NCBI GenBank assembly: GCA_005400705.1
Contig: GCA_005400705.1_4079.1
Direction: 5' to 3' (one strand)
Length of the DNA: 64,000 nucleotides
Source: Escherichia coli
GTDB taxonomy: Bacteria; Pseudomonadota; Gammaproteobacteria; Enterobacterales; Enterobacteriaceae
Shown piece by piece: positions 4,290-57,388 of the stretch. The notes beneath the pieces are model-generated. The model ran no database searches. It saw only the letters and a program-made list of their open reading frames with translations, and was not told where the DNA came from. Position numbers and translations under genes: made by a program. The number at the start of each line of letters is the position of its first letter. The stretch's first letter is position 1.

Positions 4290-5021
4290 ATGGATCTACG
4301 CAACGTACTACGTGACCTCGTAAACACAACCAGTGGTATTGACTTCTCTTGTATTGCAGTAAGCAGTGAAGACCGTGGTGAAGGACAACGTGTATATCTA
4401 GAAGCGTACACAGATGACCGAACTCTTGTAATGCGAGCATATACTAAAGAAGATGTTCCTGAAGTTCAGGGTCGTTTTGGCTTAGGTAATCTAGGTCTTC
4501 TTCAGGGTCTAATGTCTCTAAAAACATACAGTACCGAAGGAACCACAATCACATCAAATGTTAAAGATGGTTCAGTTAAAAGTCTGGCATTTAAATCTGA
4601 AGATGCAAGCACTACATTTATGGTACAAGCTGAAAAACTTATTCCAGTTCAACCACGTTTTCATGAACAACCATATGACGTACAGGTTATTCCTAGTGCA
4701 GCAAAAGTTCAGGAACTAAAGAGTTTTTCTGGTGTATTTAAATCTTTTAGTTCTCTTGTAACTCCGTATACTGAAGGCGACACCCTATACTTTCACGTTG
4801 GTGAGAAAAACAAAAGTAACCACGTTGGTTCTCTAGCTTTTTCTAAAACTGAAGGTGAATTAGGTCTTGGTTTTGGTTATAATATTGATCGCGTACTTCA
4901 AGCATTATCTCGCGTATCTAATGCCGAATCAGTATCACTTGGTATTACTAAAACTGGTATGCTAAATGTAACACTAGATACTGGAATTGCAGTATACAAA
5001 TTTTACGTAACAGGCTGCTAA
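4290..5021 (+). CDS. sliding clamp (T4 gp45-like)
   Basis: 243 aa; GLGNLGLLQGLMSL segment resembles the gp45 LNGFLGILSLV region as I recall it; sits near polymerase. Confidence 0.55.
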   Translation: MDLRNVLRDLVNTTSGIDFSCIAVSSEDRGEGQRVYLEAYTDDRTLVMRAYTKEDVPEVQGRFGLGNLGLLQGLMSLKTYSTEGTTITSNVKDGSVKSLAFKSEDASTTFMVQAEKLIPVQPRFHEQPYDVQVIPSAAKVQELKSFSGVFKSFSSLVTPYTEGDTLYFHVGEKNKSNHVGSLAFSKTEGELGLGFGYNIDRVLQALSRVSNAESVSLGITKTGMLNVTLDTGIAVYKFYVTGC

Positions 5022-5029
5022 TATAAATA
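5022..5029 (+). promoter_or_regulatory. TATAAATA late-promoter-like motif
   Basis: Exact TATAAATA followed by ggggaaca/tgttcccc hairpin (5032-5050). Confidence 0.3.
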
Positions 5030-5085
5030 ACGGGGAACACTATGTTCCCCAAATTAGTTTGATTTAAAAAGTAAAGGAATACAAA

Positions 5086-7662: not shown

Positions 7663-7803
7663 GAAAATCTCCTTGTCAAATTTTGTGCAGGTATATCCTG
7701 CTTAAAGTTATTTATCAAAAAATATCACTAGCATTTAAATTTACTGAGATATTTAATGAATTTCTATGATATTATTTATCAAATCTGGGAAAGTGATTCA
7801 AGA

Positions 7804-7814
7804 TGTGCTATAAT
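7804..7814 (+). promoter_or_regulatory. extended -10 promoter (TGcTATAAT)
   Basis: gtgctataat; followed by caatga-aaa-tcattg palindrome at 7819-7833. Confidence 0.45.
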
Positions 7815-7823
7815 TATCAATGA

Positions 7824-13081
<5,258 letters not shown>

Positions 13082-15956: not shown

Positions 15957-16775
15957 ATGACAAAATTAAATGAGTTTTTATCAAATGTAGCAGTTCTAGA
16001 TACTGAAACTACTGGGGTTGAGAGTGAAGATGATATTATTGAATTTAGTATCTCGTATCCACATACTTCACATGAAAACATTGATACTATTGATAACTAT
16101 ACATTGAGATACAAACCCTTGAAAGATATTCCACCAGAGGCATCTGCTGTGCACTTTATCAGTACTGAGGATGTAGCTAATTGTGTTGGGTATAAAGATG
16201 ATTTAGATAACATTGATGCACTTATGGGCTGCCGTAAGTATTTTGTTGGTCATAATGTACAATTTGACCGTAGAATGATGGTAGATAACGAATATAAATA
16301 TCGTAACTCAATTTCACAGTACTTACTTGATGAAAATAAATGGATTTGTACCCTTCGTCTTGCTAAGAAAATGTTCGCAGAAGATATTGAATTTAAAAAC
16401 TTAACTCTAAGTTATTTGTGGTATAAGTTTGGATGTTATCGTGATGTTCATCGACCTGTTAATGCACACGCAGCAAAAGACGATGTGTTTATGTGTTATC
16501 AGGTTCTAATCAAATTAGTTGAAATTGCAATCGAACGTGGATATATCGAACCTAATGGTGATATTGGTGAGCAAATTGTAACTTTCTGCAACACACCAAT
16601 GCGTTATCAATTCATGCCATTTGGTAAACACAAAGGTGAGCCAATGAGTACAGTTCCATTGAATTACATTGAATGGATGATTACTAATAGTGACATTTTA
16701 GATGCAAGTAACCCTAACTGTGATAAAGATTTAGTATATACATTTGAGTACGAATATAATACTCGAACTAATTAA
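15957..16775 (+). CDS. DEDDh 3'-5' exonuclease (DnaQ/ExoX-like) with C-terminal FGKHKG domain
   Basis: Exo I VLDTETTG, Exo II VGHNVQFD, Exo III HAAKDD; C-terminal FGKHKGEP...YIEWM. Confidence 0.7.
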   Translation: MTKLNEFLSNVAVLDTETTGVESEDDIIEFSISYPHTSHENIDTIDNYTLRYKPLKDIPPEASAVHFISTEDVANCVGYKDDLDNIDALMGCRKYFVGHNVQFDRRMMVDNEYKYRNSISQYLLDENKWICTLRLAKKMFAEDIEFKNLTLSYLWYKFGCYRDVHRPVNAHAAKDDVFMCYQVLIKLVEIAIERGYIEPNGDIGEQIVTFCNTPMRYQFMPFGKHKGEPMSTVPLNYIEWMITNSDILDASNPNCDKDLVYTFEYEYNTRTN

Positions 16776-18275: not shown

Positions 18276-18288
18276 ACCCGCTGTTTGT
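18264..18288 (+). terminator. terminator hairpin abutting next promoter
   Basis: acagcggg-ataaa-cccgctgt hairpin. Confidence 0.45.
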
Positions 18289-18296
18289 GATATAAT
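18288..18296 (+). promoter_or_regulatory. extended -10 promoter (TGaTATAAT)
   Basis: gtgatataat followed by perfect palindrome tgtcatatgaca. Confidence 0.45.
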
Positions 18297-18330
18297 GTGT
18301 CATATGACAACAACAAGGATGTAAAATAAA

Positions 18331-23124: not shown

Positions 23125-23140
23125 GACAAAACTAGAAGGT

Positions 23141-23150
23141 GTGCTATAAT
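23141..23150 (+). promoter_or_regulatory. extended -10 promoter (TGcTATAAT)
   Basis: gtgctataat 30 nt upstream of primase ATG. Confidence 0.45.
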
Positions 23151-23179
23151 CATTTGTAAGAAAAGACAAGGATTAACTT

Positions 23180-35761: not shown

Positions 35762-35773
35762 ATTCAAACTAAC

Positions 35774-35798
35774 AGGGATTCTATGAATCCCTTTTCTT
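35774..35798 (+). terminator. rho-independent terminator
   Basis: agggattc-tat-gaatccct + TTTTC. Confidence 0.55.
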
Positions 35799-35811
35799 AT
35801 GGGTATAATAT

Positions 35812-37412
<1,601 letters not shown>

Positions 37413-37447: not shown

Positions 37448-38850
<1,403 letters not shown>

Positions 38851-43609: not shown

Positions 43610-43620
43610 AATATAGACTT

Positions 43621-45786
<2,166 letters not shown>

Positions 45787-45787
<1 letters not shown>

Positions 45788-46578
45788 TGCCAAGTAAGAG
45801 TAAAAGTCAGGCTAAATTCTTCGCAGCCGCCGCACACAATCCAGAATTTGCAAAGAAAGCTGGAATTTCACAAAGTGCTGCTAAAGAATGGAATGCCGCT
45901 GATGAAAAGGAAGGAAATCTTAAAAAAAGTTCTAAACTTCCTAATAAAGTAAAAGAAGCAAGTATGCGTAGTTTAGTCGATATTGTACAAGATGCAGAAT
46001 TAGCTGATACAGACGACAGAACTTGTGATATAATGGATTCATGTGAAGACGACAAAGATAAGTTGGATGAAATGCCACAACGTTTCGATAGTTTTCAAGG
46101 TCAAGACCGAGACGAGTTTGTCGATAAAACTGCCGAAATGACAGGTAAGCACAACATGGTTAAGTTCGCAGAACATAAAGACTATGATGTATATATGAAC
46201 AAAAACGGTACTGGATTTATCGCTTACGATAAGTCTGGTAAACAGCTTGCTATAGTTAGTGGGCATTTATCCAATGATGCAGTACTTGGTGTTCAAAACG
46301 TTTTTGAAATTGCCGCAACTGCATCTAAAACTGGAACTAAAGGTATAATTTATAATATTTTTATGGATATGATATCACATGGTATTAAAGTTCTGAGTGA
46401 TAGTCTGCATACTGATGATGCAATTAAATTCTGGACCCGTTTAATTGGTTCCCATCAAGTTTATATTGTTGGTGGTGGTGAAGTACTTGCAAAGGCGAGT
46501 CCAGATAAGGTTCATAAGTACTGGAGTGATGATGAATCAAGTCCAAGTGCCGAACTTCAACTTATGTTAGTAAAATAA
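45787..46578 (+). CDS. hypothetical protein
   Basis: 263 aa; N-terminal SKSQAKFFAAAAHNPEFAKKAGISQSAAKEW motif. Confidence 0.45.
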
Positions 46579-46582
46579 TAAT

Positions 46583-46615
46583 ATATCGGGACAAATCGTT
46601 CCGATATTTTTTTTG
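46583..46615 (+). terminator. rho-independent terminator
   Basis: tatcgg...ccgata hairpin + TTTTTTTT. Confidence 0.5.
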
Positions 46616-46633
46616 AGACAAACAAAACATTGG

Positions 46634-46642
46634 TGATACAAT
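46634..46642 (+). promoter_or_regulatory. extended -10 promoter (TGaTACAAT)
   Basis: ggtgatacaat upstream of topoisomerase gene. Confidence 0.4.
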
Positions 46643-46676: not shown

Positions 46677-48641
46677 ATGGCTAAGAAAGAAAGTGCTGTT
46701 CTACAGGAACATGATGTTCAACGACTAAATGATTATCAACATGCTCGTTTGCGTACCGAGATGTATCTTGGTTCTCGTTCAGTGCATGAAAGTCAAGTAC
46801 TGATTTTTGGCGAATCAGGTTATGAGGTTAAGAACGTAGAATGGGTTCCTGCAATTCTTACTGCTACACGTGAAATTATTGATAACAGCTTAGATGAATT
46901 TAAAAAAGCTGGAACCAAAGAACCTGTTTTGAAAGTTGATTTCAATGAAGAAGAACTATCATTTGAAATTAGTGACAATGGACGTGGTATTCCAATTGAT
47001 TATGTTCCAGAGTATCAGAAAAACTTGTGTACTATGGTAATGACTGAAACAAAAACAGGCCGTAACTTTGACGATTCAAAACGTGATGAAACGATTGGTC
47101 AGAATGGTTTAGGTGGTTCTGTTGCAATGATTGTCAGTTCTAAGGCAGAGTTAGAAATTCATCGCCAAGGTCGTCCGTATAAAACACAAAGTAGTAATGA
47201 TGGTTATGATGGGTTTTATAAGTTCAATCAGAAGTTTGAGGAAGGAACTATTATGTTCCCTGAGCTTCATGTACACGAACCTACTATTAGAAAGGTACAA
47301 ACCGATAAAACTGGAACAACAATTCGTTTTACTTTGAGTAAAGAAGTTTTTCCAAACAGAAAACTACCAACCGAATTACTTTATAGTATTCTTAAAGAAA
47401 TGGCAGCAGCTAACCCAACTTATAAAATCTTTCTGAACGGGAAACGTATTGCTATTAAAGGAAACACTGAAAAAGCACTCTTCAATGCATCTAAATTAAT
47501 GCAGTTGAATGTTAAAGATGATTCATTCAATTTTAACAGTACTTTTTATATTGTTCCTAATGCAGTAGCTGGCATGAACACGAATTTCCATATGCATGGG
47601 TTGGTTAACAATGCTCCTGCATTTGATGGTGGTACACATCTTGATACATTCAAGAAATTCTTCTCACTCGGTGTAGGAACTGCACTAGAGAAAGAATCTA
47701 AGAAACGTAGGATGAAACCTAATCGTTCTGATATTGAAGAAGGTTTGTTGATTTATAATGTCACAACTATGAAAGCACCTTCATTCAACTCACAGATTAA
47801 ATCTAAACTAACTAATGAAAACGTAATCCGTCCAATTCAACAAGCTATGAGTACCGAATGGTTTGATGAATTAGTTAAGAAGAACAAAGAATGGGTTGAT
47901 GAAATCTTCGAACGTTGTGCTGCCCGTACAAATAAGAAAGATGCAGAAGAAGATCGTCGCCTAGCAAAGAAACTTCTAAAAGGTAAAGTTGCAAAACTAT
48001 TGGATAGTACTGGAACAGACCGTTCACAGTGTATTCTATTGATTGCAGAAGGTGACTCTGCAATTTCCAACATGGCTAGTGCTCGTATACCAAGTATTCA
48101 TGGTATTCTACCATTGCGTGGGAAAATTATGAACGTCAGTGGTACTGAGAAAACCAAAGAATTAATGGATTCAATGGCTTTACATGATATAATGGCTAGT
48201 ATCAACTTAGTTCCAGGTGTTAAAGCAGAACGTTCTGAACTAAACTATGGTAAGCTTTACATCTGTGCTGATGAAGATGAAGATGGGAAGAACATTGGTG
48301 CTCTAGTGTGTAACTTCTTATTTAAATTCTGGCCTGAATTGTTTCAAGACCCAGAAAATCCATTTGTGTATGTATTCAAAACACCATTTATCATTCTTGA
48401 GAAAGGTAAAGAATCAAAATACTACTATGGTCATAATGTGCATGAATATAACCCAGATGATTGGAAAGGCTGGAAAGCAACGCGTGCAAAAGGTTTAGGA
48501 ACTTTAGAAAAAGCAAACTTCCGTGATGCATTCACTAATAGTGTTGCAGTAGCGATCACCGATGATGGACGTCTTGGAGAAACTCTTGATTTGATTTTCA
48601 ACAAGAAACGTGCAGATGATCGTAAGAACTGGATGGAATAA
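46677..48641 (+). CDS. DNA topoisomerase II large subunit (GyrB-like ATPase + Toprim; T4 gp39-like)
   Basis: GHKL N-box EIIDNSLDE; GLGG; Toprim LIAEGDSA and ICADEDEDG. Confidence 0.85.
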   Translation: MAKKESAVLQEHDVQRLNDYQHARLRTEMYLGSRSVHESQVLIFGESGYEVKNVEWVPAILTATREIIDNSLDEFKKAGTKEPVLKVDFNEEELSFEISDNGRGIPIDYVPEYQKNLCTMVMTETKTGRNFDDSKRDETIGQNGLGGSVAMIVSSKAELEIHRQGRPYKTQSSNDGYDGFYKFNQKFEEGTIMFPELHVHEPTIRKVQTDKTGTTIRFTLSKEVFPNRKLPTELLYSILKEMAAANPTYKIFLNGKRIAIKGNTEKALFNASKLMQLNVKDDSFNFNSTFYIVPNAVAGMNTNFHMHGLVNNAPAFDGGTHLDTFKKFFSLGVGTALEKESKKRRMKPNRSDIEEGLLIYNVTTMKAPSFNSQIKSKLTNENVIRPIQQAMSTEWFDELVKKNKEWVDEIFERCAARTNKKDAEEDRRLAKKLLKGKVAKLLDSTGTDRSQCILLIAEGDSAISNMASARIPSIHGILPLRGKIMNVSGTEKTKELMDSMALHDIMASINLVPGVKAERSELNYGKLYICADEDEDGKNIGALVCNFLFKFWPELFQDPENPFVYVFKTPFIILEKGKESKYYYGHNVHEYNPDDWKGWKATRAKGLGTLEKANFRDAFTNSVAVAITDDGRLGETLDLIFNKKRADDRKNWME

Positions 48642-48652
48642 TATAGACTAAT

Positions 48653-48675
48653 GGGGAACATGGTGTTCCCCTTTT
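48653..48675 (+). terminator. rho-independent terminator
   Basis: ggggaaca-tgg-tgttcccc + TTTT (same hairpin type as 5032-5050). Confidence 0.55.
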
Positions 48676-48691
48676 ACCAAGAGACAATGGA

Positions 48692-50104
48692 ATGGCTAAA
48701 AGTAAAAAAACAGAAAATCATAATATCGATAACCAAACACTAACTCTACTAGATTATAACAGTTCTGATTATGTGAATACAACATCACTAGAATATTCGA
48801 TGTATACACTAGACCGTGCTATTCCTGGAATTGATGGTCTAAAGAGTTCACAACGTAAAGCAATCTTCACATTATCTAAAATTAGTGGGGAAATTAAAAC
48901 AGTATCATGTGCTGGAAAAATGATTAGTGATGGTATCTATCTTCATGGGGACATGTCAGCATCAGGAACACTTCAAAATCTAGCATCTCCAGTAGCTAAC
49001 AACTATCCTCTTATTGGAAAACGTGGTGGTTTTGGTACACAAGTAAACAGTACACCAGCATCTGCTCGTTACACTTATGTTAAAAAGAATAAGAGTACTG
49101 AGATGCTTGTTTTGCGTGATGCTGATATTATACCAATGAAAGAGAACTATGACGGGACAACATATGAACCTGTTCATTTCTTGCCTATTATTCCATTATC
49201 ATTGTTTGGTAATGATAGTATGTCAGTTGGTTATAAGAGTACAATTCTACCACATAAAATTGAAGATATTATTGATAATTGCATTCGTGCTATTGATAAA
49301 AAACCACTAAAAGAAATGACCCCATATTATGTTTCATGTGGTGCAAGTGATGTTGTGACTAAGCTTGATGAAAATAAGTATGAATTCTATGGTAAAGCTG
49401 AGGTTATTGATGCAAGCACTGTTAAAGTAACAGGCTTACCACCTAATTACAGTATTGAGAAATTCATCGAAAAACTAATCAAAATGAGTGATGATGGTGA
49501 GATTCGTGATTATGACAATGATAGTACTGATGTAATTGATATTACCATTAAACTTCCACGTGGAACGTCAGCTAAATGGACAGAGATGGATGTTATTGAG
49601 TATTTTGGCATTAACAAAAAAATGACTCAACATTTAACTGTTCTAGGTGAAAATGGCAAAGTGAAAGTTTACGATACTACGATGGATTTGATTAAAGACT
49701 TCGTTGATTTCCGTTTCAAATATTACATCAAGCGTTATGAAAAGAAACTTGATGATTGTGCTGCTGAAGTTCGTTATAAAATTCTAATTAAAGAATGTTT
49801 CGATAATGATATGATTGCTAAGGTAAAAGGATTTGCAAACCGTGCTGAAATGGTTGAATTCGTTAAATCGTTAAATACCGAAATTGAAGCAACGGAAGAG
49901 AATATTCAAAGCATTGTAAACTTCCCTTCATATCGCTGGACGCAAGATAATTATCAATCAGTACTACAAGATATTCAAGATAATCTTGATTTGATGGATA
50001 AGTACAATGAACTGTTATCTAATCATGACTTAATTTGGGACATTTATAAATCTGAACTAAAAGAACTAAGAAAGATTGACTTTACTCCTAAATCAGACAA
50101 TTGA
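48692..50104 (+). CDS. DNA topoisomerase II medium subunit (GyrA-like; T4 gp52-like)
   Basis: AIPGIDGLKSSQRKAIF (cf. GyrA DGLKPVHRR); follows large subunit. Confidence 0.8.
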   Translation: MAKSKKTENHNIDNQTLTLLDYNSSDYVNTTSLEYSMYTLDRAIPGIDGLKSSQRKAIFTLSKISGEIKTVSCAGKMISDGIYLHGDMSASGTLQNLASPVANNYPLIGKRGGFGTQVNSTPASARYTYVKKNKSTEMLVLRDADIIPMKENYDGTTYEPVHFLPIIPLSLFGNDSMSVGYKSTILPHKIEDIIDNCIRAIDKKPLKEMTPYYVSCGASDVVTKLDENKYEFYGKAEVIDASTVKVTGLPPNYSIEKFIEKLIKMSDDGEIRDYDNDSTDVIDITIKLPRGTSAKWTEMDVIEYFGINKKMTQHLTVLGENGKVKVYDTTMDLIKDFVDFRFKYYIKRYEKKLDDCAAEVRYKILIKECFDNDMIAKVKGFANRAEMVEFVKSLNTEIEATEENIQSIVNFPSYRWTQDNYQSVLQDIQDNLDLMDKYNELLSNHDLIWDIYKSELKELRKIDFTPKSDN

Positions 50105-50114
50105 TATATTTAAT

Positions 50115-50140
50115 GGAAGACCTTATGGGTCTTCCTTGTC
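50115..50140 (+). terminator. terminator hairpin
   Basis: ggaagacc-ttat-gggtcttcc. Confidence 0.45.
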
Positions 50141-50145
50141 CTTTA

Positions 50146-50153
50146 TATAAATA
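50146..50153 (+). promoter_or_regulatory. T4-type late promoter motif TATAAATA
   Basis: Exact TATAAATA about 40 nt upstream of ATG 50192. Confidence 0.4.
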
Positions 50154-50191
50154 ATCTATAGATAATGGCAGCTTGGCTATGGAGAATTATA

Positions 50192-52585
50192 ATGACAACT
50201 TTTACCCCACGATGGGATATAAAAGCCGATGCTCGATATATACAAGAAGGACAAGACATTCTTGTGCGTTTGAGTATCAATAAAGAAAGCACAACGGATG
50301 ATAGCTATGTATTAAATGAAGATGAATACTTAGAAATGATTCTTAACATACAATGCTTGGATAGTTCAGGTGCTGTATTTGATCCAGAACCACATTATAC
50401 TTTTTATGTTGGTAATGACGAAAATACTTTTGTTCCTATTTCAGATGGTACAACTGGTAATAAATTAGTAAATGGTAAGCATAAGTGTAAAATCAGCAAA
50501 AATGAATTTAACTTATCTGCAAGTACTAATAGTGAAGATGTTTATTTTATAAAAATTCATTGTAAAAATGATGGAACCTATAATAATACAGAAATTATAA
50601 ATTTTTATTTACAAGCAGTAAATGTTATGTATTTTGGAAATATTTCACCAAGTGGTGTTCTAGGATTAACTGATACATCAATAACATATGATAGTCAAGA
50701 AGTTTGGGTTACACCCGGAGTTGAGATTGGTGATGACAAAAAGCTTTATTGTATTGGTGATGTTGAGTATGGCTCCAACAGTACATTGTTCGTTCAAGGA
50801 TTTGGAAGAAGACGACCTTTCATTTTGGGTACTGACATGACTACTGATATTACACCTCGTGTCTTTTTTCCAGCATATCGTTTGATTGACATGGATATTT
50901 CTGAAGTTCCAGATAAACATATTACGAATGATTTCGCAGTATTCAAGCCAGCACAATCAACATGGCCTATTTCTGGTATAAACAAAGAAGTAAAAGTTAA
51001 TATTCAAAATAGAAATGGTAATTTAATTGACACTGGAATGGTGTTCAACCCAAATGGGCAATTATTGCAAACATTTTTATATGACTCAGATGCTTGTGAT
51101 GCATATTTTAAAGTTGAGATTGTTGATATATTAAGTACATACACCGAAGAAAGTGAAAGGTTTGCTATCAATCAACGATATAAAGCATATCAAATGTGGG
51201 TTTGTCCTGAAGACATAGATACTATATATTCTATTTCAGAAAAACCACTACCCAATCATTTATATCAATTAAAAGATAATGTTGTGTATCCATACGTAAT
51301 TAGTGGTGAATACGATAATGGAACAATTAAGCCCGTTTATGATAGTAGTGATTGGATTGATTTAGGATATTATGACTCTACTCTTGGTGATAATATCATT
51401 GGTATGCAAAAAATGTTCAGGGTTTTGATAAACGCAGAAGAAGGTAATAATATAAACTTTATTACTGATAGTGATTTAGGAACCATACATGTTGGTGAAT
51501 ATTTTGGAGACAGTATATATCCTAAAATTGAAACTGATAGCTCTAATCAAGTTTCGTATGTTTTAGATGGTGGTGATGACATTAGAAAGTATGGGATAGA
51601 TTTGACACCAGATGGATATCTTGTAGGAACTGCATATGCCAAAAGTATTGATTTTAGTAAAAATGATGATATTAAATTATCGTTTTATGTTAAAGCATTT
51701 AGTACTGAAGGTGGTGAAGCAAGAAAAATATTTAACCTTAAGATTGTAAGAGGATTCGGACAGAATTATTTGAGTGCACATGTATTACCTTCGGTTGCAT
51801 TTGAGAGAGAATGGTTTAAATGTATAAGTACTTCATCATTCACTAATCAACTATTTTTCCGACAATCTGACAATAGATATGGTCTTCAGAAAATACCGAA
51901 GATGTTATTGAAAGAAAACTTCCTAAGTCAAACGTATCCATATACTAACCTTTCTGATATCAAGAAAGTATTGAGAAATAGTATAATTAACCCAAATGGA
52001 ACTACTATTCCAAATGGAAAATTTAAAATGGTAATGGGTAATTATAAAATAATATCAGCACTTGACAATCAAGGTAACTTACAATATGATCTATTATATA
52101 GAGAGGTTTTACCTGAAGGATCTTTAGTATCTGTATCCAAAAATCCACGTCAATATACTCAAATCGACAACGGTCAGCTTGGTGAATTATTTGGTTTACG
52201 ACAAAATATTTTTCAGGCTATTGGTGAAGACACAACCAACTTAGTAAAAGACCCAACCGATTTACAAAATCGTGGTCTATACGTTGATGCGATACCAAGT
52301 ATCAGTGATGAAATGCTTGATACGGTTCCAAGATTTATGAATCACCCATACATTGAAGATGGTATACAGAAAAAATTCATGCCTATCATTCCAGTTGCAT
52401 ATTGTCAACCAGGGAAAGGTGAAGCATTTTTCAACACTTTACTTCAGAACAATGAACATGGTACAATGGTAGGTGTAGAGTTCGAAATCACATCGGTTGA
52501 ATTCGGATACTTTTCGCATGAATCAGTGAATTATGTTTCAGATACATTTTTGATTACATTGCAAAACAATAACATAGGAGGTTAA
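50192..52585 (+). CDS. large beta-rich hypothetical protein (possible virion/tail-associated)
   Basis: 798 aa, N/G/T/S/Y-rich; GGAG RBS; late-type promoter; AT-rich codons. Confidence 0.55.
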   Translation: MTTFTPRWDIKADARYIQEGQDILVRLSINKESTTDDSYVLNEDEYLEMILNIQCLDSSGAVFDPEPHYTFYVGNDENTFVPISDGTTGNKLVNGKHKCKISKNEFNLSASTNSEDVYFIKIHCKNDGTYNNTEIINFYLQAVNVMYFGNISPSGVLGLTDTSITYDSQEVWVTPGVEIGDDKKLYCIGDVEYGSNSTLFVQGFGRRRPFILGTDMTTDITPRVFFPAYRLIDMDISEVPDKHITNDFAVFKPAQSTWPISGINKEVKVNIQNRNGNLIDTGMVFNPNGQLLQTFLYDSDACDAYFKVEIVDILSTYTEESERFAINQRYKAYQMWVCPEDIDTIYSISEKPLPNHLYQLKDNVVYPYVISGEYDNGTIKPVYDSSDWIDLGYYDSTLGDNIIGMQKMFRVLINAEEGNNINFITDSDLGTIHVGEYFGDSIYPKIETDSSNQVSYVLDGGDDIRKYGIDLTPDGYLVGTAYAKSIDFSKNDDIKLSFYVKAFSTEGGEARKIFNLKIVRGFGQNYLSAHVLPSVAFEREWFKCISTSSFTNQLFFRQSDNRYGLQKIPKMLLKENFLSQTYPYTNLSDIKKVLRNSIINPNGTTIPNGKFKMVMGNYKIISALDNQGNLQYDLLYREVLPEGSLVSVSKNPRQYTQIDNGQLGELFGLRQNIFQAIGEDTTNLVKDPTDLQNRGLYVDAIPSISDEMLDTVPRFMNHPYIEDGIQKKFMPIIPVAYCQPGKGEAFFNTLLQNNEHGTMVGVEFEITSVEFGYFSHESVNYVSDTFLITLQNNNIGG

Positions 52586-52586
52586 T

Positions 52587-52898
52587 ATGTTTAATCCGTT
52601 TTTTGACCCGTCTGGAATGACGGAAAAAGAACTACAGTTAAAAATTAATGAACAGTCTATGCGTTTAACTTCTGCTCGTGCTGCTGGCCTAAGCGACATG
52701 ATTATTGGTAATATGCAAACTGTCTTAAATCAATGTTATGCTGAACTAGAACTTCGCCAAGGACAAAAAGAAAAAACTGTTTATGACGAAGAAGACCCAT
52801 GTATCTTCGATATGGATTCATATCTAACTGACAACGAAGAGGCCCAGAAGAAGAAAAATGAAAGTACAAGGAAACAGATTTATAAGTCCCAATGGTGA
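52587..52898 (+). CDS. hypothetical protein
   Basis: 103-aa ORF overlapping next ORF by 41 nt. Confidence 0.35.
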   Translation: MFNPFFDPSGMTEKELQLKINEQSMRLTSARAAGLSDMIIGNMQTVLNQCYAELELRQGQKEKTVYDEEDPCIFDMDSYLTDNEEAQKKKNESTRKQIYKSQW

Positions 52899-53376
52899 TG
52901 TGAAATGTAATCTTAACGCAGTTGTTTATGCAATCAATTGCGGTGCAGATATCCAGTACTTACAATTGCAGGAAATTGATGAACCTGAAAGGTTGAAATT
53001 CAATGATAACTGTAAAAAATTTGGCTTAGAACAACGTATGCTGGATTATACAATTGAGCATGATAAAAATCATGAACTGTGGCGATATGATCCAGTATAC
53101 GACAAAATAAATCTGCGTGACTTTTTCTTACAAAAATGCACATCCGATGAAGCACGAAAACGTGTTGAGTATGAACTTGATTTATATGAATATTATAATA
53201 TGACAAAGCTACTAAGATGTATGATATGGCTTGTTGATTATATGGAAGAAAATGAGATCTTTTGGGGTCTAGGTCGTGGAAGCTCTGTTGCATCATACTG
53301 TTTGTTTTTGATTGGACTACATATGGTAGATTCATTGAAGTACGAACTTGATGTTAACGAATTTTTGAAATGGTAG
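52858..53376 (+). CDS. DnaE (Pol III alpha) core-like fragment ending just before catalytic-Asp region
   Basis: RVEYELDLYEYYNMTKLLRCMIWLVDYMEENEIFWGLGRGSSVASYCLFLIGL colinear with DnaE ...GPGRGSxAGSLVAY... palm segment. Confidence 0.5.
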   Translation: MKVQGNRFISPNGDVKCNLNAVVYAINCGADIQYLQLQEIDEPERLKFNDNCKKFGLEQRMLDYTIEHDKNHELWRYDPVYDKINLRDFFLQKCTSDEARKRVEYELDLYEYYNMTKLLRCMIWLVDYMEENEIFWGLGRGSSVASYCLFLIGLHMVDSLKYELDVNEFLKW

Positions 53377-53385
53377 AAAAACATG

Positions 53386-53394
53386 TGATATAAT
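53386..53394 (+). promoter_or_regulatory. extended -10 promoter (TGaTATAAT) inside inverted repeat
   Basis: tgtgatataa ... ttatatcaca inverted repeat (53384-53418). Confidence 0.45.
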
Positions 53395-56144: not shown

Positions 56145-56708
56145 ATGGACGATTTAGATTATACAGATAATGCTATTCAGCAGTTGTATGATAACAGTGG
56201 TATGTTAGATATACTTCTTGCTGTAGAGAAATATTTCGATGATAATGATTTATATGCGTATAAAGGAATTATTGAGGGTGAGTTGGTAGAGGGGCCAATT
56301 GTAAGTAAGTATTGGTGTACTGTTACATTTAAATACTATCGTGAAAATTTTCCCGATCCTACCGCATTCTCTATTTTAGAGAAACATGGAACTAAAGTAT
56401 ATGTTAAAGCTGATTATGAAATAACTCCTATTAAAGAACCAAATCGTCAAGCTGACATGAAAAGTGTAGCGACACAATCTGGCTCTGTACGTATACCAAA
56501 AAATGAAAGAATCCCAGTACTATTGGTTAGAGTGCAGATTCCACGAAACTTGATTAATCCAGAAAGTTTTGATGAATATAAACTAATGGCAGCAGAATTC
56601 AATAGTAATCCAATGAATTCTCCTGAGAATATTGAAGAACCTGTAACTGGTGATGATGTGGATTTAGATGTAGAAGTAACGGATGAGACACAAGAAGGTG
56701 GAATGTAA
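56145..56708 (+). CDS. hypothetical protein
   Basis: 187-aa ORF. Confidence 0.45.
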   Translation: MDDLDYTDNAIQQLYDNSGMLDILLAVEKYFDDNDLYAYKGIIEGELVEGPIVSKYWCTVTFKYYRENFPDPTAFSILEKHGTKVYVKADYEITPIKEPNRQADMKSVATQSGSVRIPKNERIPVLLVRVQIPRNLINPESFDEYKLMAAEFNSNPMNSPENIEEPVTGDDVDLDVEVTDETQEGGM

Positions 56709-57388
56709 TGAAAAAGAAATTAAATGAACAAGGCTTACGTCCGCAAGTTCTCAAAGATTTGATTCATCCTATCATTAGTGTTGATGAATATACTCCTAAA
56801 ATTGAAGATAGTAATATTGTTATTATGTTTCAGGTACTTAACAATTTTGATGCAGCATATGATTTATCTTCTTTTATTGAAAAATTACCTATTGATGTAG
56901 CTGATACAGAAGCAGCAGAAACACCAAATTTAGATGGTCGATATCAAGTTTATGTTGAAATGGAACGAAATGCCGAATTCCCTGAAAAACTTTTACGTTT
57001 AATTAAAACTATTGAAAATATTTGTCCAGACCCAGGTTGGAAAATACAACTATATGGTGTTAATGACCCAATCGATGTTGATTTTGAAGAAATACAGCAG
57101 AGAATTGATTTGGGTATTCCTAGTTCAATTAGTGAGTTCCTTGATTATGCTGGTGTTTCAGTAATCAAAGAAGGAAACATGTTGACATTAAAAACAGCAT
57201 ATGGTAAATTACATTACAGTACTGGAAGCGGTTTTGTTTCAGAAACATATGTGAAAAAGTTATTAAAGAATGATACACAATTAGACACTTCGCGTCTTAG
57301 TTCCATACTAGGGGAAAGCTATACAGTACTACGAAGTGGTGATCAATATGTAATTGGAAGAAACGGGAAATATTTGGTGTTGCGATGA
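56708..57388 (+). CDS. hypothetical protein
   Basis: 226-aa ORF, overlapping start/stop. Confidence 0.45.
   Translation: MKKKLNEQGLRPQVLKDLIHPIISVDEYTPKIEDSNIVIMFQVLNNFDAAYDLSSFIEKLPIDVADTEAAETPNLDGRYQVYVEMERNAEFPEKLLRLIKTIENICPDPGWKIQLYGVNDPIDVDFEEIQQRIDLGIPSSISEFLDYAGVSVIKEGNMLTLKTAYGKLHYSTGSGFVSETYVKKLLKNDTQLDTSRLSSILGESYTVLRSGDQYVIGRNGKYLVLR

Follow-up and report, generated by a model that had tools for sequence, protein, structure and literature searches.

The 64,000-nucleotide stretch analysed here (the window), taken from an Escherichia coli assembly (GCA_005400705.1), is a genome segment of an Asteriusvirus, a jumbo coliphage and myovirus of the PBECO4/121Q/phAPEC6 or 'Rak2-like' type. 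On its plus strand, at 50192-52585 including the stop codon, it carries the gene for a virion protein of 797 amino acids (aa) and 90.3 kDa (90.298 computed) with an isoelectric point of 4.7. The gene follows directly behind those for the large (46677-48641, +, 654 aa) and medium (48692-50104, +, 470 aa) subunits of topoisomerase II. It is preceded by TATAAATA at 50146-50153 (+), an exact match to the -10-like element of T4-type late promoters whose position is conserved among relatives. The first-pass annotation of this DNA had already pointed to an open reading frame (ORF) of roughly 800 aa behind the topoisomerase genes, with an exact late-promoter motif about 40 nucleotides (nt) upstream, and both observations stand, the motif ending 38 nt ahead of the start codon.

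The mechanical ORF call spans 50165-52585 (806 aa), and its earlier ATG at 50165 lacks a ribosome-binding site and is only 11 nt away from the motif. We take ATG 50192 to be the true start because a Shine-Dalgarno GGAG (50181-50184, +) is located 7 nt before it and is kept in all orthologous leaders, because PBECO4, 121Q and phAPEC6 are annotated accordingly, and because residues M1, P6 and W8 are invariant in 48 homologues. With regard to composition, the protein had been described as rich in N, G, T, S and Y. This holds for N, G and Y, which are enriched 1.3-1.4x over the other window proteins together with F, but not for T (1.13x) and S (1.05x), and the combined N+G+T+S+Y fraction ranks 53rd of 56. 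The AT-rich codon usage formerly taken as a mark of the gene equals the genome norm, since its GC content at third codon positions (GC3) is 20% compared to a window median of 22% and a window GC of 34%. A foreign origin or recent insertion was considered as well and is ruled out by the normal GC and GC3 together with the conserved gene order.

The late-promoter element and its leader

The element stands right behind an intrinsic-terminator-like hairpin (50115-50145, +), GGAAGACC-TTA-TGGGTCTTCC with a T-rich tail, which has a stem of 9 base pairs (bp) with five GC pairs and starts 11 nt past the stop codon of the topoisomerase medium subunit. All orthologous loci have a comparable hairpin with a T-run, and the supplementary tables published for phage CBB list the terminator behind the topoisomerase gene as Torf325. 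Such a hairpin would insulate the gene from upstream middle transcription. No -35 hexamer was found, as the region 17-35 nt upstream of TATAAATA is occupied by the GC-rich hairpin and a scan gave no sigma-70-type pair using the element. Transcription would be expected to start at approximately 50159-50161.

The same plan of the leader, consisting of the hairpin with T-run, N-N-TAAATA, GGAG and ATG, is kept in PBECO4, 121Q, RaK2, GAP32, CBB, XaC1, Hallingskeid and PHA46, with 27-38 nt between the end of the motif and the ATG. The motif reads TATAAATA in 121Q, XaC1, Hallingskeid and PHA46, CATAAATA in GAP32 and CBB, and AGTAAATA in RaK2. Vibrio phage 2.275.O has GATAAATA 28 nt before the ATG, and the remote homologue in Agrobacterium phage Atu_ph07 has GGTAAATA at a distance of 21 nt. 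Over ten lineages with otherwise diverged spacers, the TAAATA core is thus positioned 21-38 nt before the start codon.

Motif counts were less informative. The window contains four copies of TATAAATA, with 10.5 expected, and two of them are intergenic against 1.35 expected (3.05 kb of spacers, 71% AT), which is not above chance; the shorter ATAAATA occurs eight times between genes compared to 4.0 expected (p ~0.05). Being non-significant in spacers of 71% AT, intergenic motif counting was dropped as a significance test and replaced by coding depletion and conservation. Within the coding sequence of the window, ATAAATA was found three times against 35 expected from codon shuffles, a roughly tenfold depletion across both strands, and TATAAATA twice against 9.7. 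ATAAATA ranks first in depletion among the 21 permutations of A5T2 (sense, 3 vs 12.9 expected; antisense, 0 vs 22). We regard the site at 50146-50153 as meaningful because of its conservation and the avoidance of the motif inside genes, and not because of its count. The avoidance of ATAAATA is also a possible signature of late-promoter usage, which could aid late-gene annotation in this phage group.

The head and baseplate cluster of PBECO4 (293-343 kb; 50 kb, 95% coding) offers a view of the motif in use. All six copies of TATAAATA are intergenic there and lie 24-55 nt before a gene start, and five of the six precede structural genes; the genes behind them are those for the major head protein, the scaffold, the baseplate hub, the wedge operon, the hub/lysozyme and endonuclease VII. 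For ATAAATA, 14 of 17 copies in this cluster are intergenic. The matching sigma factor, encoded outside the window, is the gp55-like PBECO4 gp530 (phrog_12791, E=3e-154; phrog_234, 'late sigma transcription factor', E=8e-18). The gene of this sigma and a protease gene have TGnTATAAT promoters instead of the late motif. In the CBB paper, ATAAATA had been put forward as late promoter for both CBB and GAP32, and a gp55-like sigma was reported there too. The reading of TATAAATA as a T4-type late promoter, which the first-pass annotation had put forward, is well supported by conservation, coding avoidance, use at head and baseplate genes and the presence of a gp55-like sigma, even though the count by itself does not exceed chance. 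From these sequence features we infer that the unit is transcribed late and depends on this sigma.

Three further sites in the window deserve mention with the motif, in addition to the one at 43610-43680. The only two exact copies of TATAAATA inside coding sequence, at 16293-16300 (+, ORF 15957-16775) and 38594-38601 (-, ORF 38125-38802), could act as internal late promoters, considering how strongly the motif is avoided elsewhere. The fourth copy, within 5022-5085, begins right behind the stop codon of a 243-aa virion protein gene (4290-5021), whose product mass matches phAPEC6 gp215c, and is followed by a GC-rich hairpin without T-run, ggggaacactatgttcccc, 56 nt before a 68-aa ORF. At 43610-43680, GATAAATA is placed in the ~25-nt loop of a perfect 14-bp hairpin (aaaactccaagatt / aatcttggagtttt), which is followed by a T-run and includes the GGAG of the next gene (43681) in its 3' arm. 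Here, read-through transcripts could terminate or have their ribosome-binding site masked, and transcripts started in the loop could not fold the hairpin.

Gene order and neighbouring transcription units

The units of the region are all co-oriented. A late unit with two virion proteins (44198-46578) and its terminator is followed by the middle-type promoter of the topoisomerase operon (TGAGACA ... TGaTACAAT, 46613-46642, +, after the terminator at 46583-46607), the genes of the large and medium subunits and the terminator described above. The late promoter then precedes the 797-aa gene, a 103-aa ORF and a gene fragment for the DNA polymerase III alpha subunit (DnaE). Next comes a middle-type promoter with an extended -10 (TTGAAA-18-TATAAT with TG, 53365-53394, +), serving a 114-aa gene and a GroES-like gene and ending with a terminator. 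The last unit comprises the clamp loader with the genes following it and a terminator, behind which GTAAATA and two further virion proteins (56145-57388) are located. Both middle promoters have published counterparts in CBB: 'Porf_324' (TGAAAC..TGCTATAAT) before the topoisomerase operon equals the promoter at 46613-46642, and 'Porf_329' (TGAAAC...TGnTATAAT) before the gene behind the DnaE fragment equals the one at 53365-53394. Extended -10 promoters of this kind (TGnTATAAT), often with a TGAAAC-like element, recur before replication and metabolism genes in many intergenic regions of the window, for example at 7663-7880, 18276-18330, 23125-23179 and 35762-36011 in addition to the two named above, and the class matches the 'divergent RpoD-like' promoters published for CBB and GAP32.

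Downstream of the virion gene, 52587-53376 (+) is taken up by two small genes, the 103-aa ORF at 52587-52898 and the 172-aa DnaE fragment, which overlap by 41 nt. A scan of the plus strand revealed no terminator-like site between 50135 and 54043. Because no terminator separates them from the virion gene, both are probably co-transcribed with it from the late promoter. The DnaE-fragment ORF covers positions 16-95 of the 260 of Pfam PF07733, and the truncated DnaE was noted in the CBB paper too. The overlap, in which the two genes use different frames, is annotated likewise in RaK2, GAP32, CBB, XaC1 and PHA46, with a later start in phAPEC6, and could reflect a mis-called start or a programmed frameshift.

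The order of topoisomerase large subunit, medium subunit, virion gene, ORF of ~100 aa, DnaE fragment, hypothetical gene and GroES-like gene is identical in ten genomes (PBECO4, 121Q, phAPEC6, RaK2, GAP32, CBB, XaC1, Hallingskeid, PHA46 and Vibrio phage 2.275.O). The clamp-loader gene downstream is present in the enterobacterial phages and unannotated in XaC1 and the Vibrio phage. The suggestion that the gene had been inserted among early genes does not agree with an order conserved from coliphages to Xanthomonas and Vibrio phages, and the locus is instead read as a place where late and middle units have alternated since ancient times, without insertion. Some local variation was observed. In Vibrio phage 2.275.O (4180-6917), two ORFs, 052 (273 aa) and 053 (638 aa), take the place of the single gene, with profile positions from 172 onwards in ORF 053 and GATAAATA ahead of ORF 052 only. 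In RaK2 (796-2505), the genes for the two topoisomerase subunits are separated by a homing endonuclease gene, whereas in the window (48642-48691) and the other relatives nothing but a hairpin-bearing spacer of 50 nt lies between them.

Relatives, virion detection and architecture of the protein

A tblastn search with the 797-aa protein retrieved 73 phage records, all from 'Rak2-like' jumbo myoviruses. About 20 Asteriusvirus records from coliphage and Salmonella-phage isolates (PBECO4, phAPEC6, SP27, G17, Sharanji and others) are 99.7-99.9% identical, with phAPEC6 gp158c at 99.9%. The identity amounts to 96.9% in 121Q, 54% in RaK2 and K64-1, 44-45% in GAP32, CBB and Yersinia, Erwinia and Serratia phages, 40% in Xanthomonas phage XaC1 and 24% over a partial-length match in Vibrio phage 2.275.O. 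The gene corresponds to PBECO4 gp451, 121Q gp54 and phAPEC6 gp158c, with RaK2 gp160 and GAP32_321 as orthologues. Its counterparts in PBECO4 and 121Q are labelled 'virion structural protein' in RefSeq, which is also the name of PHROG 13911, matched with E=0 over residues 1-796 (profile positions 1-788 of 789). The homologues are 775-804 aa long and align end to end with at least 40% identity. Relatives are scarce: when 1.8 billion representative proteins were searched exhaustively with a profile, just 49 came up at E<=0.001. A Pfam scan with the whole protein and its two halves gave only sub-threshold noise up to E=10 (DUF6656, TRAPPC13_C). A profile search of all PDB sequences returned nothing but 18 residues matching a WD-40 repeat protein by chance, so the protein has no relative of solved structure.

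The protein has been detected in virions of several relatives by mass spectrometry (MS). In CsCl-purified virions of phAPEC6, gp158c (90.30 kDa) was represented by 9 unique peptides with a coverage of 17.1%, and RaK2 gp160 by 6 peptides with 8.1%; the comparative table of the CBB paper lists both GAP32_321 and RaK2 ORF160 as detected. Virions of Atu_ph07 likewise contain the remote homologue gp329. The prediction of a late structural protein is borne out to this extent, with detection in phAPEC6, RaK2 and GAP32 and not in CBB. Absence from virions or membership in a non-structural enzyme family, named in the first-pass annotation as outcomes that would speak against it, contrast with three virion detections and no sequence match to any enzyme. 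Molecular weight could be used to match several genes of the window to the phAPEC6 proteome; the assignment of the 20.66 kDa gp167c to the DnaE-fragment ORF was ambiguous and treated as coincidence.

An AlphaFold model built from 48 sequences (mean predicted local distance difference test, pLDDT, of 85.4; predicted template modelling score, pTM, of 0.49) confirmed the beta-rich character that had been suspected. It shows four beta-sandwich domains in residues 1-522 (50192-51757, +), at approximately 1-168, 169-325, 326-420 and 421-522, with structural matches to immunoglobulin (Ig), cadherin, cohesin and Calx-beta domains. They are followed by a conserved 275-residue C-terminal alpha/beta domain (residues 523-797; 51758-52582, +) with a 2H-phosphoesterase-like fold, and this hallmark module is common to all remote relatives. 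We assign the 2H match to residues 523-797 in the model, as this is the only alpha/beta region and the order of the secondary-structure elements agrees. An AlphaFold model of the C-terminal domain alone, based on 21 sequences, was poor (pLDDT 58.6) and was left out of the fold search. Foldseek against the PDB retrieved tandem cadherin and protocadherin ectodomains with E down to 1e-9 and low template modelling (TM) scores, since the similarity is confined to the repeated domains and does not extend to the way they are arranged. In the viral structure library, the matches were orthologues, Atu_ph07 gp329 and generic Ig-array phage proteins. The proposed structure prediction and fold search therefore did bring out Ig-like domains, but no fibre, beta-helix or tailspike fold was among the top matches, and viral matches annotated as fibres were weak (TM ~0.1) and shared Ig arrays.

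Conservation is unevenly distributed over the chain. Among orthologues, mean identity is lowest in the first two N-terminal domains (40-43%) and highest in the fourth and fifth domains (D4 and D5; 55-64%), and the N-terminal domain still keeps 33-40% identity across seven host genera. What the remote relatives have in common with the window protein is limited to D4, which is He_PIG-like, and the C-terminal domain. Their N-termini belong, according to Pfam, to He_PIG Ig, CBM5/12, Big_9 with cadherin-like domains, or a sedolisin pro-domain, and the homologues of Atu_ph07 and Phosso are annotated as serine protease and S8 peptidase, respectively.

Interpretation and comparison with known systems

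We consider it likely that the locus forms a late transcription unit of its own, flanked by replication operons of the middle class, and encodes a conserved virion protein. In the proposed sequence of events, the hairpin would end the topoisomerase transcript, and TATAAATA would restart transcription late in infection, presumably through host RNA polymerase and the phage gp55-like sigma. The late transcript would cover the gene of the 797-aa protein and, probably, also its two small downstream neighbours, and the conserved core of He_PIG-like and 2H-fold-like domains would dock the protein while the more variable N-terminal domains would face outward. Taken together, the architecture, the late promoter and detection in three independent cases make a virion role the best reading of the protein. 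Several points weigh against this interpretation. CBB_326 was not detected in CBB virions and is missing from the published list of CBB late promoters. The phAPEC6 virion list also includes a topoisomerase subunit, a RecA-like protein, SSB and thymidylate synthase, of which the topoisomerase II medium subunit (2 peptides, 8.1% coverage) was regarded by the authors as a non-structural protein carried in the head; detection by MS alone is thus no proof of a structural role. According to the CBB authors, homologues of gp33 and gp45 were not detectable, so that the activation mechanism may differ from that of T4. Literature searches on transcription in Rak2-like phages yielded no transcriptome, RNA sequencing data or 5'-end map, the intergenic count of TATAAATA is at chance level, and the docking role of the C-terminal module, like the placement of the protein in the virion, is deduced from the logic of domain conservation only. 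Because peptide coverage is low for a 90-kDa protein (8-17%) and the protein is absent from the CBB proteome, it is apparently a low-copy component.

Some of these points would also suit a rival account, by which TATAAATA arose by chance in AT-rich DNA, expression of the gene goes along with that of the replication genes, and the protein turned up in virions as a contaminant or through unspecific packaging, like the neighbouring topoisomerase subunit. The motif count, the replication and metabolism proteins in the phAPEC6 list, the low coverage and the missing CBB signal would all fit. Against it stand the conserved position of the motif in ten lineages, the terminator directly upstream, the avoidance of ATAAATA in coding sequence and the presence of the same motif ahead of the major head and baseplate genes. 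Independent detection in three genera and a multi-Ig architecture typical of virion-exposed proteins are likewise hard to reconcile with it, and we give this account very little chance of being right. Only slightly better placed, and still very improbable, is an active virion-borne 2H phosphoesterase in the C-terminal domain, acting as an Acb1-like destroyer of cyclic-nucleotide immune signals or as an RNA-end processor delivered at infection. The 2H superfamily is defined by two catalytic H-x-T/S-x tetrapeptides, and no H-x-T/S motif is conserved in residues 515-797 of the 48 homologues. The only conserved histidines in this region are H718 (NHPY), H756 (EHxx) and H640 (HPxG), none of which is kept in the remote relatives, and the residues conserved throughout the family (G, P, Y, N, A, D) are of the fold-holding kind. 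Pfam gave no 2H match even at E<=10, and an hhalign comparison of the C-terminal profile with E. coli ThpR was uninformative (probability 0.1). The domain is probably not an enzyme, at least not a canonical one.

The view that the protein is a receptor-binding adhesin, whose Ig-like array binds the host surface and decides which strains are infected, has more in its favour and is nevertheless unlikely. The tandem Ig/cadherin-like domains suit such a function, the N-terminal domains are the most variable part, remote relatives carry CBM5/12 or a subtilisin-like protease in their place, and the Atu_ph07 homologue adjoins a tail-fibre gene. Against this stands that the length of 775-804 aa and 40-54% full-length identity are kept in phages of Escherichia, Klebsiella, Cronobacter, Erwinia, Yersinia, Salmonella and Xanthomonas, and that about 20 coliphage and Salmonella-phage isolates are nearly identical. 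The tail-fibre and tailspike proteins of RaK2 (gp526-534) are encoded elsewhere and are mostly missing from GAP32 and CBB, and the top fold matches contain no fibre, beta-helix or tailspike. Conserved length, identity and gene order fit a core particle component and not a receptor-binding protein. The earlier suggestion of a host-range determinant is thus not upheld, which takes the gene off the candidate list for phage-therapy engineering.

Within the favoured reading of a late virion protein, the arrangement of conserved and variable domains permits a more detailed proposal. It is possible, though we hold it tentatively, that the protein is anchored on the particle by its C-terminal module, with the N-terminal domains as the exposed and exchangeable part. 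More doubtful is the extension that the He_PIG-like domain and the degenerate 2H-fold module form an undescribed virion-docking adaptor of a small modular family of jumbo-phage appendages with swapped N-termini. If it were true, the swapped parts would be Ig arrays in the phage of the window, CBM5/12 binders, and a serine protease in Atu_ph07, and a fold of RNA or nucleotide processing would have been repurposed to anchor the protein structurally or to offer a pocket for ligands on the particle. The finding of a 2H-like fold that lacks the catalytic motifs also provides a starting point for locating this conserved virion protein, which occurs in the whole group.

For the gene itself, the closest comparison is with the Asteriusvirus, RaK2 and GAP32 orthologues, which share gene, length, neighbours and virion detection and differ in nothing of substance. 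The virion association of the gene and the late-promoter motif of the phage group are already published, and the published records of the orthologues give no domain architecture, function or promoter for it. The feature is ordinary for Rak2-like phages, and the residual novelty lies in the degenerate 2H-like C-terminal module with its protease- and CBM-bearing relatives. The analysis confirms that Rak2-like jumbo phages interleave late T4-style units with replication operons, and its practical value is modest.

T4 late promoters have the identical 8-bp element, lack a -35 and lie a few tens of nt before structural genes, and a gp55-family sigma is encoded in both cases. In T4, however, they are read by gp55 together with gp33 and the gp45 clamp, and the consensus in the phage group of the window is looser (N-ATAAATA or TAAATA). 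Virion decoration proteins with Ig-like domains are known, for example T4 Hoc and Ig-bearing tail proteins. Like these, the window protein is a late, acidic, non-fibre virion protein with tandem Ig-like domains, but it has no sequence relationship to Hoc-type proteins, is much larger and possesses the additional 275-residue C-terminal alpha/beta domain; the low peptide coverage also argues against a high-copy capsid decoration. With the 2H phosphoesterases (LigT/ThpR, Usb1, CPDase, the central domain of AKAP18 and phage Acb1), the C-terminal domain has the two-lobed alpha/beta fold in common, whereas it lacks both catalytic motifs and any profile match and is ~100 residues longer. Finally, Atu_ph07 gp329 ('extracellular serine proteinase', 1251 aa) contains the He_PIG-like domain and the C-terminal module at 25% identity and resembles the window protein in its presence in virions and its upstream TAAATA, but differs in its serine protease N-terminus (S8 in Phosso) and in adjoining a tail-fibre gene instead of the topoisomerase genes.

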